Origin: Escherichia coli
GTDB taxonomy: Bacteria; Pseudomonadota; Gammaproteobacteria; Enterobacterales; Enterobacteriaceae
NCBI RefSeq assembly: GCF_003790525.1
Contig: NZ_CP033635.1
Strand: one strand, 5' to 3'
DNA length: 64,000 nt
A program made the position numbers and the translations under genes. Of the stretch, positions 5,339 to 50,573 are shown one piece after another. The stretch's first letter is position 1. Each line of letters begins with the position of its first letter. The notes beneath the pieces are model-generated. The model had not been told where the DNA came from. It did not search any database and saw only the letters and a program-made list of their open reading frames with translations.

Positions 5339-5372
5339 TGCCGGATACAGCGCAAACGCCTTATCCGGCCAT
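5339..5372. repeat. REP-like palindromic unit (CCGGATA...GCCTTATCCGGCC)
   Basis: Imperfect palindrome of the enterobacterial REP type located 10 bp after the gdhA stop. Confidence 0.6.
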
Positions 5373-12939: not shown

Positions 12940-12970
12940 GGCCTACAATTCTGTACTGGCATTGTAGGCC
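12940..12970. terminator. bidirectional hairpin between convergent pncA and ydjE
   Basis: Perfect 10-bp arms GGCCTACAAT / ATTGTAGGCC separated by 11 nt. Confidence 0.6.
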
Positions 12971-13022
12971 AGATAAAACACGTCAGTGGTACATCTGGCA
13001 ATTGATGCCATCAACGAAAGAT

Positions 13023-24168: not shown

Positions 24169-24190
24169 GTTGAGATGACACTGTGATCTA

Positions 24191-24220
24191 AAAAGAGCGA
24201 CTTCGGTCGCTCTTTTTTTT
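24191..24220 (+). terminator. rho-independent terminator after gapA
   Basis: Stem AAAAGAGCGAC / GTCGCTCTTTT with TTCG tetraloop followed by a T run. Confidence 0.85.
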
Positions 24221-26074: not shown

Positions 26075-26099
26075 AAAACAGGGCATGACGCCCTGTTTT
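26075..26099 (-). terminator. hairpin terminator downstream of mipA
   Basis: Stem ACAGGGC / GCCCTGT flanked by A and T runs, between the mipA stop and the yeaE start region. Confidence 0.6.
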
Positions 26100-39353: not shown

Positions 39354-39411
39354 CGTCACATCTAGAAAATAGCAAAGGCTGCCTGTGTGCAGCCTTTGTG
39401 CAATTTACGCG

Positions 39412-46419: not shown

Positions 46420-46474
46420 TGACATCAGCGGCGGTATTTTCCGCCGCTGGGCTGATTTTTGATGGAGTACAGCA

Positions 46475-47440
46475 ATGTCAGACTATCAAATGTTTGAAGT
46501 ACAGGTGAACCAAATTGAACCGCTTACCGAACAGGTGAAACGCTTCACGCTGGTGGCAACCGATGGCAAACCATTACCTGCGTTTACCGGAGGAAGTCAC
46601 GTCATTGTGCAGATGAGCGATGGTGATAACGAGTACAGCAATGCGTATTCACTACTGAGTTCGCCGCATGACACCTCTTGTTATCAGATTGCCGTTCGGC
46701 TGGAGGAAAACTCGCGCGGCGGTTCCCGCTTTTTGCATCAGCAGGTAAAAGTGGGCGATCGGTTAACGATTTCAACGCCTAATAACCTGTTTGCGCTAAT
46801 TCCCTCGGCCAGAAAGCATCTGTTTATCGCGGGAGGCATTGGTATCACCCCTTTCCTGTCGCACCTGGCAGAGATGCAATACAGCGACGTCGACTGGCAG
46901 TTACATTACTGCTCACGAAATCCAGAAAGTTGCGCATTTCGTGATGAGCTAGTCCAGCATCCGCAGGCTGAGAAAGTTCATTTTCATCACTCATCAACCG
47001 GAACACGACTGGAATTAGCGCGATTATTGACGGATATCGAACCTGGCACACATGTTTATACCTGTGGCCCCGAGGCGCTAAATGAGGCGGTAAGAAGTGA
47101 AGCTGCGCGTCTGGACATCGCCGTCGATACGATGCACTTTGAACAATTTGCGATTGAAGACAAAACCGGCGATGCATTTACCCTGGTGCTTGCCCGTTCC
47201 GGTAAAGAGTTTGTGGTGCCGGAAGAGATGACTATTTTGCAGGTTATTGAAAATAATAAAGCAGCGAAAGTGGAATGTTTATGTCGTGAAGGGGTATGCG
47301 GAACCTGCGAAACGGCAATACTGGAAGGTGAAGCTGACCATCGGGATCAGTATTTTAGCGATGAAGAGCGTGCCAGCCAGCAAAGTATGTTGATCTGTTG
47401 TTCGCGCGCGAAGGGTAAACGCCTGGTGTTGGATTTGTAG
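46475..47440 (+). CDS. yeaX: oxygenase reductase subunit (flavin/NAD-binding domain plus plant-type 2Fe-2S ferredoxin)
   Basis: 321 aa; C-terminal CREGVCGTCE ferredoxin motif. Confidence 0.9.
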   Translation: MSDYQMFEVQVNQIEPLTEQVKRFTLVATDGKPLPAFTGGSHVIVQMSDGDNEYSNAYSLLSSPHDTSCYQIAVRLEENSRGGSRFLHQQVKVGDRLTISTPNNLFALIPSARKHLFIAGGIGITPFLSHLAEMQYSDVDWQLHYCSRNPESCAFRDELVQHPQAEKVHFHHSSTGTRLELARLLTDIEPGTHVYTCGPEALNEAVRSEAARLDIAVDTMHFEQFAIEDKTGDAFTLVLARSGKEFVVPEEMTILQVIENNKAAKVECLCREGVCGTCETAILEGEADHRDQYFSDEERASQQSMLICCSRAKGKRLVLDL

Positions 47441-47444
47441 TTTG

Positions 47445-47480
47445 CCGAAGCCGGACTGAGCGCGCTCAGTCCGGCTTCGG
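47445..47480. terminator. perfect 16-bp-stem hairpin between convergent yeaX and rnd
   Basis: CCGAAGCCGGACTGAG-CGCG-CTCAGTCCGGCTTCGG, perfectly complementary arms. Confidence 0.65.
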
Positions 47481-47486
47481 AAGATT

Positions 47487-48614
47487 TTACTGCGGATATT
47501 CCTGCAATAAATTGTGTAATGCTTCCGCCATCAGCTCACCACGCCAGCCGGAAATCAGCTCCGGCAAATTGTTCTGCGGTTTCAGTTTCCAGTGCCAGTT
47601 CAGCAGTTGGTTGATTTGCCGACGCGATGCCAGCAATTCGGCGCTGATCTTGTGCGTTTCGCTCACGTCAGTAATCAGCGACTTAATCGCTTTAAACGCT
47701 TTACGATAACCCGGCATGTCCATCAGGTTAAGCATCGGCTGCGGTAAGGCCTCTTCCGGCAATGTCTGCGCTTTTTCCACCAGCGCCAGCAGCGTTTTAC
47801 CGTGAAAGCGGATTTCGCTACCGGATAAACCCAGGCTGTCCAGTTCGCCTAAACTTCCCGGCATATAACGCGCTACAGACCACAAATGCTCTTCACGCAC
47901 GACAAAGTTCACTGCCAGATCGCGCTCCCGCGCCTTGCGCAGTCGCCAATCGGCTAACAGTTGCAGACAGGCCAGTTGGCGTGTGCGTAACTGCCAGGCA
48001 TTGGTGATATCACGCCAGGCATCTTCCGGCGCAACGACTTCCTGACGACGCATTTGCATCAGGCGGCATTCATCCAGCGCCGCAGGTAGCCAGCCGGAGG
48101 CCTCCGTTTCTACCATAAGCTTGGCGGTGATCGGTAACAAATACCAGACATCCGCCGCTGCGTATTCACACTGACGTTCGGTCAGCGGTCTGGCCAGCCA
48201 GTCGGTGCGCGATTCACTCTTGTCCAGCGTAACGCCGGAATACTCTTCCACCATGGAAGCAAAACCCCATGACATCGGGCGTCCGCAGAAGGCAGCAAGG
48301 ATTTGCGTGTCAATCAGGGGTTGTGGTAATTCGCCAAAGACATTGAGGAACACTTCCAGATCTTCACTGCCCGCATGGAGAAATTTTGTGATGGACGGAT
48401 CGCGCAGGATCGCTTTCAGTGGTGACCAGTCGGAGATCCCGAGAGGATCAATTAGCGCCAGATGCTCACCATCAAAAAGTTGAATTAGACCTAGCTGCGG
48501 GTAATAGGTGCGCGTACGAACAAATTCAGTATCCAGGGCTATCGCCGGAAAGGCACGGACGGCTTCACACAAAGAAGCCAGCGCATCGTCCGTGGTAATC
48601 ATTTGGTAATTCAA
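47487..48614 (-). CDS. rnd: ribonuclease D
   Basis: 375 aa; DEDD exonuclease motif ALDTEF; initiates at UUG (CAA on plus strand at 48612-48614). Confidence 0.9.
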   Translation of the reverse strand: MNYQMITTDDALASLCEAVRAFPAIALDTEFVRTRTYYPQLGLIQLFDGEHLALIDPLGISDWSPLKAILRDPSITKFLHAGSEDLEVFLNVFGELPQPLIDTQILAAFCGRPMSWGFASMVEEYSGVTLDKSESRTDWLARPLTERQCEYAAADVWYLLPITAKLMVETEASGWLPAALDECRLMQMRRQEVVAPEDAWRDITNAWQLRTRQLACLQLLADWRLRKARERDLAVNFVVREEHLWSVARYMPGSLGELDSLGLSGSEIRFHGKTLLALVEKAQTLPEEALPQPMLNLMDMPGYRKAFKAIKSLITDVSETHKISAELLASRRQINQLLNWHWKLKPQNNLPELISGWRGELMAEALHNLLQEYPQ

Positions 48615-48638: not shown

Positions 48639-48664
48639 AAAAAAAACGCCGGATTAACCGGCGT
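48639..48664 (-). terminator. fadD terminator hairpin plus U8, also the element upstream of the rnd UUG start
   Basis: Stem ACGCCGG / CCGGCGT with 5-nt loop followed on the minus strand by eight U, 24 nt before the rnd UUG. Confidence 0.8.
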
Positions 48665-48683
48665 CTGACGACTGACTTAACGC

Positions 48684-50369
48684 TCAGGCTTTATTGTCCA
48701 CTTTGCCGCGCGCTTCGTCACGTAATTCTCGTCGCAAAATTTTTCCGACGTTAGATTTCGGTAACTCATCACGAAACTCCACCAGCTTCGGTACTTTGTA
48801 GCCCGTGAGCTGACGGCGGCAAAAAGTCACCAGTGACTCTTCGGTAAGCGATGGATCTTTTTTCACAACGAAGATTTTCACCGCTTCACCACTAGAGCCG
48901 GAAGGTACGCCAACAGCCGCGACTTCCTGTACGCCAGGATGCTGCATGACGACATCTTCAATCTCGTTGGGATAGACGTTAAAACCGGAAACCAGAATCA
49001 TGTCTTTTTTACGATCGACAATGCGCAGGAATCCTTCTTCATCCATCACCGCGATGTCGCCGGTGTGTAACCAGCCATTTTTGATGATTTCATCGGTAGC
49101 ATCCGGACGCTGCCAGTAACCCAGCATCACCTGCGGTCCTTTGACACAAAGCTCACCTGGTTGACCAGGTGGTACTTCATTATCATCATCATCCACCAGT
49201 TTGGCTTCCGTCGACGGCACCGGCAAACCGATGCTACCACTATGATAATCAATATCATACGGGTTAACGCTCACCAGCGGCGCACACTCGGTCAGGCCAT
49301 AACCTTCCAGCAGATACTGTCCAGTCAGTTTCACCCAACGTTCTGCCACCACTTGCTGAACAGGCATCCCTCCGCCTGCGGAAAGATGCAGACTGGAGAA
49401 ATCCAGCTGCTGGAACTCTTTATTGTTCAGCAACGCATTGAACAAGGTGTTAACGCCAGTGATAGCGGTAAACGGATATTTCGCTAACTCTTTTACCAAC
49501 CCTGGAATATCGCGCGGGTTAGTGATAAGCAGGTTCTGCCCCCCCAGTTCGATAAACAGCAGGCAGTTAATGGTCAGTGCAAAAATGTGATACAGCGGCA
49601 GCGCCGTCACCACCAGCTCTTTGCCCGGATGCAACAGCGGACCATAGGTCGCGTTAACCTGTTCCAGGTTCGCCAGCATATTGCGGTGAGTCAGCATCGC
49701 GCCTTTCGCCACACCAGTGGTACCGCCGGTGTATTGCAGGAAAGCTAAATCTTCCGGCACCAGTTCGGGTTTGACGTACTGCATCCGGTAGCCGTTGTGC
49801 AGGGCGCTACGAAATGAAATGGCATCTGGCAGATGGTATTTCGGCACCAGACGCTTGATGTATTTAACAACGAAATTGACTACCGTGCCTTTTGCCGTAG
49901 ATAGCTGATCGCCCATACGGGTCAGAATTACGTGCTGAACGGCGGTTTTATCAACCACTTTTTCCAGAGTGTGGGCAAAGTTAGACACGATAACAATCGC
50001 CGATGCGCCGCTATCGTTAAGCTGATGCTCAAGTTCACGCGGGGTATACAACGGGTTAACGTTTACGACAATCATCCCGGCACGCAAAATGCCAAACAGC
50101 GCCACCGGATATTGCAATAAATTAGGCATCATCAACGCAACGCGATCGCCTTTCTTCAGTCCCAACCCTTGTTGCAAATAAGCGGCAAACGCGCGACTGC
50201 GTTCTTCCAGTTTGCGGAAGGTCATCACCTCCCCCATATTCACAAACGCGGGTTGATCGGCGTAGCGCGCGACCGACTGCTCAAACATATCTACCAGAGA
50301 TTGATAACGGTCAGGGTTGATCTCCGTCGGAACGTCCGCGGGATAACGGTTAAGCCAAACCTTCTTCAA
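48684..50369 (-). CDS. fadD: long-chain-fatty-acid--CoA ligase
   Basis: 561 aa from TTG ([10 protein letters not shown] read as MKKVW) with GAGGTG Shine-Dalgarno; AMP-binding signature [18 protein letters not shown]. Confidence 0.9.
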
Positions 50370-50458: not shown

Positions 50459-50527
50459 TGATAATTACCCAACGAAAAGGTTGCGAAGCGCGTCACTATT
50501 TATTTTTATCTTTACCGTAAGAATGCA

Positions 50528-50544
50528 GAAACAGCGGACCAGCC
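50528..50544 (-). promoter_or_regulatory. FadR-type operator 2 of fadD
   Basis: Minus-strand GGCTGGTCCGCTGTTTC, 86 bp upstream of operator 1. Confidence 0.5.
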
Positions 50545-50573
50545 GCTGTTTCTTTTTCTTTAAAAACAAGCAA

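Follow-up and report, generated by a model that had tools for sequence, protein, structure and literature searches.

A perfect 36-bp palindrome between convergent yeaX and rnd of Escherichia coli: a probable REP descendant and candidate 3'-terminal stem-loop of both transcripts

The elements closest to the hairpin analyzed here are the bidirectional terminators catalogued in Escherichia coli K-12, whose list (Table 16, cited in full below) we take to be the SEnd-seq list of Ju, Li & Liu 2019. The K-12 ortholog of the hairpin is entry 155 among the 306 bidirectional terminators of that list (Table 16, supplement of bioRxiv 10.64898/2026.03.23.713779). Entry 155 is given with an overlap at 1886809-1886861, in both log and stationary phase, and with the genes yeaX:rnd:fadD; it carries the exact K-12 hairpin sequence at -35.5 kcal/mol, with one A as 5' flank and four U as 3' flank, its + strand RNA ends in ...GGAAGA, ahead of the U-run, and its REP column is blank (bioRxiv 10.64898/2026.03.23.713779). 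The authors of this class state that it does not depend on Rho. Another kind of transcript end was described by Dar & Sorek 2018, in whose data Rho-dependent transcripts end at stable stem-loops without U-tracts, which shield them from PNPase and RNase II (PMC6061677). For REP elements, the GTAG tag and the stem mismatch are required for binding and cleavage by TnpAREP (PMC3333891), and REP325 was demonstrated both to stabilize mRNA and to terminate transcription in a partly Rho-dependent manner. Finally, the quasi-palindrome template-switch mechanism is documented in E. coli, and template switching has been proposed as a genome-wide corrector of imperfect inverted repeats. The function of the yeaX/rnd hairpin is already known: K-12 catalogues list it both among the bidirectional terminators and as the 3' terminus of rnd.

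The palindrome and its surroundings

We analyzed a 64-kb stretch of E. coli DNA (hereafter, the window), the sequence of which is 100% identical to that of E. coli SMS-3-5. Positions 47445-47480 read CCGAAGCCGGACTGAGCGCGCTCAGTCCGGCTTCGG, a 36-bp palindrome with 100% self-complementarity. At the DNA level, it consists of 18+18 bp arms without any spacer; as RNA, it folds in the same way from both strands into a 16-bp stem closed by a CGCG loop, with an energy of -32.3 kcal/mol (z = -7.7; 0 of 200 dinucleotide shuffles folded equally well). The palindrome exceeds chance expectation; it is the longest perfect inverted repeat of the window, the runner-up having arms of 12 bp, and the longest perfect arm obtained in 40 first-order Markov simulations of the window measured 9-13 bp. 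Convergent yeaX and rnd are separated by a gap of 46 bp, and the hairpin lies within this gap, 4 nt after the TAG stop codon of yeaX (it begins at the 5th nt) and 6 nt after the stop codon of rnd on the minus strand. A preliminary description of this DNA had named the two genes correctly, since the RefSeq annotation of SMS-3-5 places both around the hairpin; the perfect arms, 16-bp stem and CGCG loop that it reported were borne out by the self-complementarity and the fold, and its distances of 5 nt and 7 nt from the stop codons are right when counted inclusively.

The same description had proposed searching the genome for further copies as a check for a repeat family. That search was done and returned one copy per genome, and hence no family. 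Indeed, 5,425 of the 5,426 complete E. coli genomes carry the element, each of them once, and no further copy was found inside the 64-kb window when up to 3 mismatches were allowed; a repeat family was rejected on these grounds. Among the matches listed, the exact-match genomes showed 2 places and the 98.4% (one-mismatch) matches 1, the exact genomes and the surplus places both totaling 24; the second place in the exact-match genomes, SMS-3-5 included, most likely reflects a match of the palindrome to its own opposite strand. Of the 5,425 matches to the yeaX-rnd region, one falls on a record labeled as a plasmid, and one genome of the 5,426 was without any match. A search of the hairpin against Rfam at a permissive threshold gave solely microRNA-precursor matches (E 0.3-9), far under the gathering scores. 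The coordinates of the features are collected in Table 1.

Table 1. Features of the yeaX-rnd region, in window coordinates
Feature	Position	Strand	Remarks
yeaX, carnitine monooxygenase reductase subunit	46475..47440	+	Stop TAG 47438-47440; from the ORF list and RefSeq SMS-3-5
rnd (RNase D)	47487..48614	-	TTG start as in K-12; stop TAA 47489-47487
Perfect 36-bp palindrome	47445..47480	.	Stem 47445-47460 with 47465-47480, CGCG loop; K-12 ortholog 1886815-1886857
7-bp deletion junction relative to the majority allele	47455..47456	.	TGTGGCG on +, CGCCACA on rnd strand; flanking microhomology absent
T versus C of the other aligned E. coli alleles	47469	.	Clears the last mismatch (A.C on +, G.U on rnd strand), giving the perfect palindrome
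+ strand tail AAGATTTTA	47481..47489	+	Weak 4-U run from 5 nt past the stem; no call in the terminator scan
Predicted + strand 3' end	47484	+	Transferred from K-12 1886861
Predicted steady-state rnd mRNA 3' end	47437..47439	-	6-8 nt past the hairpin foot; transferred from K-12 1886807, 1886809
Untranslated antisense-yeaX RNA, putative Rho loading/termination zone	47207..47444	-	C-rich, G-poor; downstream of the hairpin in the rnd direction

Several other elements were noticed in the window. Perfect hairpins with 10-12-bp arms occur at 24190-24217, 50527-50553, 39373-39398 and 26075-26099; the first reads AAAAAGAGCGAC-TTCG-GTCGCTCTTTTT and shows the symmetric A-tract and T-tract expected of a true bidirectional intrinsic terminator, and the one at 39373-39398 corresponds to entry 154 of the K-12 bidirectional terminators (yoaJ/yeaQ). 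A terminator-like hairpin followed by a T-run (TCAGCGGCGGTATTTTCCGCCGCTGG GCTGATTTTT) lies at 46425-46450 on the + strand, in the short yeaW/yeaX spacer and inside a presumed single operon. In the fadD-rnd spacer, we found a full-length Rfam match to the sRNA sroD (48640-48725, minus strand; 115 bits, E = 7e-24), which is unrelated to the hairpin; it overlaps a terminator-like hairpin with a T-run at 48666-48644, and K-12 Term-seq ends 1888018/1888020 fall at the equivalent place. With respect to the start of rnd, the K-12 annotation has a 375-codon frame opened by TTG, and the RefSeq SMS-3-5 start lies 12 nt further in (1,116 versus 1,128 nt; 48603-48614, minus strand). TTG opens rnd in 8 of the 8 loci compared (all the Escherichia loci of this set and its one Citrobacter locus; position 2803 in locus L001).

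Alleles of the hairpin and its probable REP ancestry

The perfect palindrome is a rare allele of a nearly ubiquitous element, being found in exact form in 24 of the 5,426 complete E. coli genomes. About 75% of the genomes carry a K-12-type long form (1,978 exact and 2,092 near matches), an imperfect hairpin that is 7 bp longer (TGTGGCG after GCCGGA, + strand) and has a C at the position of 47469; a form lacking these 7 bp accounts for about 25%. All E. coli alleles fold strongly on both strands. Two further variants, which likewise bring the sequence closer to a perfect palindrome, arose independently in other Escherichia lineages: R32_14_1F has a 12-nt deletion resulting in GCCGGACA-GGGTG-TGTCCGGC, and in SCPM-O-B-8794 an A-to-G change has removed the REP mismatch. 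In B2-type strains, a deletion runs from dmlR' through yeaX, and the last ~24 nt of yeaX and the hairpin are retained beside rnd. As side observations on these strains (L003, L004 1150-1500), the lost block comprises dmlR-dmlA-yeaV-yeaW-yeaX, pseudogene stubs of a LysR regulator and a tartrate dehydrogenase remain, and both long and 7-bp-deleted hairpin alleles are present within B2.

We then looked pair by pair for compensatory changes in the stem of 10 Escherichia alleles and found none; 7 of the 11 outer-stem pairs were invariant in these alleles, and the foot differences between Escherichia lineages correspond to a register shift that is not countable as covariation. Since no compensatory change was detected, we do not claim any evolutionary proof of selection on the RNA structure.

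The preliminary description had also stated that the hairpin does not have the REP signature. This holds for the allele of the window, which gives no match to a REP profile; by descent, however, the element is most likely a decayed REP. We built a Y-REP profile from 13 distinct Y REPs of K-12 and SMS-3-5 and ran it with nhmmer over 299 kb. The SMS-3-5 allele had no match at E <= 1000, and the K-12 allele matched with its right half alone, at a nonsignificant E = 34. The ortholog of strain E69 matched over its full length with 12.1 bits and a borderline E = 0.056, ranking just after bona fide diverged REPs. Indeed, sister Escherichia lineages have a near-canonical Y-type REP at the yeaX/rnd site (GTAAGCCGGACAAGGCG...GCCGCATCCGGC). 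Compared to the Y-type consensus GTAGGCCGGATAAGGCGTTCACGCCGCATCCGGCA, which we confirmed on many K-12 copies, the E69 element is nearly canonical. E. albertii and E69 read GTAAGCCGGAC..GGCGCAAC.AGC....CATCCGGCTT; E69 keeps GTAAG, AAGGCG and GCCGCATCCGGC, and E. albertii keeps GTAAG and CGCATCCGGC.

The hallmarks of a REP are missing from SMS-3-5. The GTAG tetranucleotide 5' of the foot is absent (the rnd-strand foot reads CCGAAG), GTAAG being found in the E69 and E. albertii orthologs only. The stem mismatch typical of REPs is likewise absent from SMS-3-5, and the K-12 allele retains a bulged, mismatched REP-type interior. Nor does the element show the high copy number of a REP, occupying one place per genome in 5,425 genomes. 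With both the tag and the mismatch lost, the two requirements of the REP transposase are gone by the published criteria. The nucleotide identity of rnd to that of SMS-3-5 rises from 89% in E. albertii to 94% (93.7%) in E69, 96% in MOD1 and 98% in K-12, and this gradient polarizes the allele series from REP-like to palindrome-like. A megablast search with the E69 allele gave no match in E. coli genomes; together with the 93.7% identity of rnd, this indicates that the E69 allele belongs to a different Escherichia lineage.

Taken as a comparison of sequences, these results suggest that the element most probably descends from a single REP inserted before Escherichia diversified, so that a K-12 bidirectional terminator with a blank REP entry is probably a decayed REP. 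The probable REP descent of entry 155 suggests that the published figure of 78 REPs in 306 terminators understates REP ancestry. For this point we used the REP column of Table 16, since the K-12 RefSeq feature table contains zero REP features anywhere, even at malE-malF, and their absence at yeaX/rnd is thus uninformative. Elsewhere in the window, the REP searches turned up a degenerate Y-type REP at 5339-5370 (GGCCGGATAAGGCGTTTGCGCTGTATCCGGCA, minus strand) and, at 12964-12999, a weak Z1-like one (GTAGGCCAGATAAAACACGTCAGTGGTACATCTGGCA).

Four derived steps separate the REP-like alleles from the palindrome, and self-complementarity rises with each derived change. Two adjacent substitutions turn the foot GTAAG into CGAAG and extend the stem by CCGAAG/CTTCGG. 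A cluster of changes makes the interior CTGGGCGCGCTCAG quasi-palindromic and gives rise to a second inner helix; the loss of 7 bp (CGCCACA on the rnd strand) fuses the interior to the outer stem; and a last G-to-A change on the rnd strand eliminates the final wobble. The 7-bp deletion is not flanked by a direct repeat, and simple slippage therefore fails to account for it. If the nascent strand folded back on the alternative inner helix and copied the left arm, exactly this deletion would result. The GTAG tag and the stem mismatch would have been lost through palindrome-perfecting mutations, probably quasi-palindrome template switches. The allele series offers a natural example of palindrome "perfecting," consistent with template-switch mutagenesis. 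We put forward only tentatively, as a rather doubtful proposal, that the locus may record, allele by allele, how a REP derived from a mobile element turned into a fixed 3'-end hairpin with the form of a perfect palindrome. If true, the perfect allele might differ measurably in rnd 3'-end formation; if general, quasi-palindrome template switching could be a route by which REPs escape TnpAREP and become dedicated terminators or stabilizers. The REP ancestry and the stepwise perfecting are modest additions to a known element.

To place the hairpin in a wider context, the rnd loci of 80 enterobacterial species (L006-L085) were inspected by eye over the 70 nt past the rnd stop codon. Some stem-loop was seen within these 70 nt in 80 of 80 species, with sequences unrelated between genera: REP-type hairpins of different types follow rnd in Citrobacter, Enterobacter and Kluyvera, and canonical A/U-flanked terminators follow it in Klebsiella, Kosakonia and Raoultella, those of Klebsiella and Kosakonia being bidirectional intrinsic terminators with an A-tract and a U-tract. 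The median fold energy of the 70 nt past rnd was -26.3 kcal/mol versus -20.5 kcal/mol for windows of rnd coding sequence, a comparison of qualitative use only, and 37.5% of the loci fell below the 5th percentile of this control. Between genera, one hairpin has been replaced by another in the rnd 3' flank. According to a crude nearest-ORF search, the downstream neighbor of rnd is convergent in 56 loci and codirectional in 24. In one species of the set, Escherichia sp. MOD1-EC7003 (L053 3625-3660), the rnd stop codon TAA is changed to TAC, the frame is thereby lengthened by 24 nt, reaches the left arm of the hairpin and ends at a TGA inside GGACTGAGC, and yeaX is absent downstream of the hairpin.

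Transcript ends and the proposed role of the hairpin

Two independent K-12 data sets put transcript ends at the foot of the hairpin. In addition to entry 155, a TRS study reported the primary rnd 3' terminus at 1886807, within a peak at 1886805-1886814 that was significant in three libraries (adjusted p 4e-21 to 3e-28), with a longest U-run of 3 and a 3' UTR of 58 nt (PMC10687069). The K-12 hairpin occupies 1886815-1886857, which puts the rnd-strand ends of the two data sets 6-8 nt beyond its foot and the + strand end 4 nt beyond it. No 3' end at 18868xx appears on either strand in the Term-seq list curated by Adams et al. 2021, and entries for rnd, yeaX or 18868xx were not found in the TERMITe supplements. 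The flanks of the hairpin are identical in K-12 and SMS-3-5, and the K-12 end coordinates can thus reasonably be transferred to the window as presumptive ends.

We next considered the signals next to the stem. The hairpin provides the GC-rich stem-loop of a canonical intrinsic terminator (16 bp, -32.3 kcal/mol). It is followed by the tail AAGAUUUUA on the + strand and by CAAACUAC on the minus strand; neither tail has a U-tract, taken as some 5 or more U within the first 8 nt past the stem. A scan for consensus intrinsic terminators made no call for the hairpin at 47445-47480 on either strand. In the rnd direction, the C/G ratio ranges from 1.4 to 3.8 over the 300 nt past the hairpin, with a peak of 3.8 at 47207-47304 (~140-240 nt). 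Adams et al. 2021 (supplementary file 2) listed a Rho termination region on the minus strand, antisense to yeaX, with a peak at 1886672. This region, identified with bicyclomycin, has a Rho score of 5.03 (p = 9e-8) and, in the rnd direction, lies 143 nt beyond the hairpin; its position is approximate, since the score is computed over 800-nt windows and from few reads (56/22 versus 45/89). The peak corresponds to about position 47302 of the window. The bicyclomycin-sensitive region at yeaX/rnd thus conflicts with the statement that the class is independent of Rho. Taken together, the locus has two features of a protective 3' stem-loop, namely, a stable stem without a U-rich tail and a Rho/rut-like region just downstream, the position of the end being that of K-12.

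Our main reading, to which we assign a probability of about 0.6, is that the single-copy hairpin forms the 3'-terminal stem-loop of both transcripts, the rnd end being produced by read-through, Rho-dependent termination and trimming, and that by descent it is a REP fossil. Whichever strand is transcribed, the hairpin would end up as the 3'-terminal stem-loop of the RNA. For rnd, RNA polymerase would mostly read through it, since the hairpin is without a U-tract; the untranslated C-rich, G-poor antisense-yeaX RNA would then recruit Rho, with termination ~150-250 nt further on, and 3'-to-5' exonucleases would trim the tail until blocked by the stem, leaving an end that is sharp and stable, 6-8 nt beyond the foot. 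For yeaX, the stem-loop and the weak U-run would place the end ~4 nt beyond the stem, either through the same pathway or through weak intrinsic termination, and the hairpin would serve yeaX transcripts whenever that operon is on. The lack of a U-tract, the downstream Rho signal and the sharp end at the foot together favor read-through, Rho and trimming for rnd. We infer both the trimming by exonucleases at the hairpin and the validity of the K-12 3' ends and Rho signal for the SMS-3-5 allele.

The preliminary description had regarded the hairpin as probably a bidirectional terminator or RNA 3'-end stabilizer. The ends mapped at its foot in K-12 agree with such a role, and this functional reading is supported, though for the K-12 allele only, whose flanks and basal 11-bp stem are identical to those of SMS-3-5. 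A terminator in the strict sense is doubtful on the rnd strand, given the missing U-tract and a Rho region ~140 nt further on, and the stabilizing or end-defining half of the claim fits better.

The strict version of the claim would be a genuine factor-independent bidirectional terminator, in which the nascent hairpin alone pauses and releases RNA polymerase and the mapped ends are points of termination. Its place in the list of 306 bidirectional terminators, where the ends of both strands are sharp, and the description of that class as not Rho dependent are consistent with this view, as are the very stable stem (-32 to -40 kcal/mol) and the 4 U that occur within 8 nt of the stem on the + strand. 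However, the U-tract needed for release is absent on both strands, the longest U-run on the rnd strand being 3, the + strand RNA stops at ...GGAAGA before reaching the U-run, and bicyclomycin raises read-through past the hairpin in the rnd direction. We thus consider a purely intrinsic bidirectional terminator unlikely, and less likely than the combination of read-through, Rho and trimming. Termination could also be driven by collision: the hairpin would pause the yeaX and rnd RNA polymerases, which would be dislodged by head-on and trailing collisions. This mechanism was proposed for the class, the stem-loop being required to fix the positions at which collisions happen, and the site lies exactly in the gap of convergent genes. 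The model is hard to apply here, since its efficiency rises with two-sided traffic, whereas yeaX is barely expressed compared to rnd (RNA-seq base means of 65 versus 1,883, i.e., ~30-fold lower), and since the hairpin is kept in strains without yeaX (~1,050 B2-type genomes). Ordinary LB cultures nonetheless yield a sharp 3' end for rnd. We therefore hold collision-driven termination to be improbable.

It could also be argued that the hairpin has no selected role at all, being a dead and harmless REP whose 3' ends are the by-product of any stable hairpin. The absence of covariation in the stem would fit such a relic, as would the tolerance of polymorphic indels and substitutions; perfect pairing brings no gain in stability over the K-12 form (-32.8 versus -34.4 kcal/mol on the rnd strand), and the mutational bias of template switching alone can perfect palindromes. 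Conversely, the element persists in 5,425 of 5,426 genomes and has survived a large deletion next to it, every genus that we inspected has some strong hairpin in the 70 nt past rnd, albeit of unrelated sequence, and in K-12 the rnd 3' end is measurably defined by the hairpin. A passive relic thus has a low probability in our view. An active role at the DNA level, either as a substrate of TnpAREP or as a binding or cruciform site on the chromosome, is highly improbable: the REP ancestry speaks for it, and a perfect 36-bp palindrome could extrude as a cruciform, but the GTAG tag and the stem mismatch that TnpAREP requires are both missing (foot CCGAAG, perfect stem), no REP-profile match is obtained, and each genome has one copy.

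According to the reading that we prefer, namely, a 3'-terminal stem-loop reached by read-through, Rho and trimming in the case of rnd, the hairpin would set the 3' end of the RNase D mRNA and shield yeaVWX (carnitine oxidation) and rnd from mutual read-through. Its significance beyond annotation is small, the K-12 3'-end catalogues already covering the yeaX/rnd hairpin.

Comparison with known systems

As in a canonical intrinsic terminator, a GC-rich hairpin directly follows the stop codon; unlike in such a terminator, it comes without a U-tract on both strands, and the A-tract/U-tract symmetry of the bidirectional ones is missing as well. Symmetric bidirectional intrinsic terminators of that kind are present downstream of rnd in Klebsiella and Kosakonia.

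With the class of bidirectional terminators, the hairpin shares its K-12 ortholog (entry 155), the gap between convergent genes, the GC-rich stem-loop and the ends on both strands that flank it. It differs in that the allele of SMS-3-5 lacks 7 bp and pairs perfectly, the ends having been mapped on the K-12 allele, and in that a local downstream signal is Rho dependent, in contrast to the Rho independence stated for the class.

Compared to Y-type REPs, the yeaX/rnd element lacks GTAG, the mismatch and a profile match, has one copy and is omitted from K-12 REP catalogues; its foot is 6 bp longer (CCGAAG/CTTCGG), and its fold energy is -32 kcal/mol versus ~-21 kcal/mol for a consensus REP. Similarly to ~60% of REPs, it is extragenic and lies between convergent genes, and the GCCGGA...TCCGGC core is common to both. 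The role proposed here, that of a Rho-assisted terminator and block to decay, would be analogous to the one shown for REP325.

The protective stem-loops of Dar & Sorek (PMC6061677) differ from the present case in that here one hairpin would serve two convergent transcripts, protection from PNPase and RNase II being putative. The stem without a U-tract, the precise end just downstream of it and the adjoining Rho zone with C-rich RNA are common to both.
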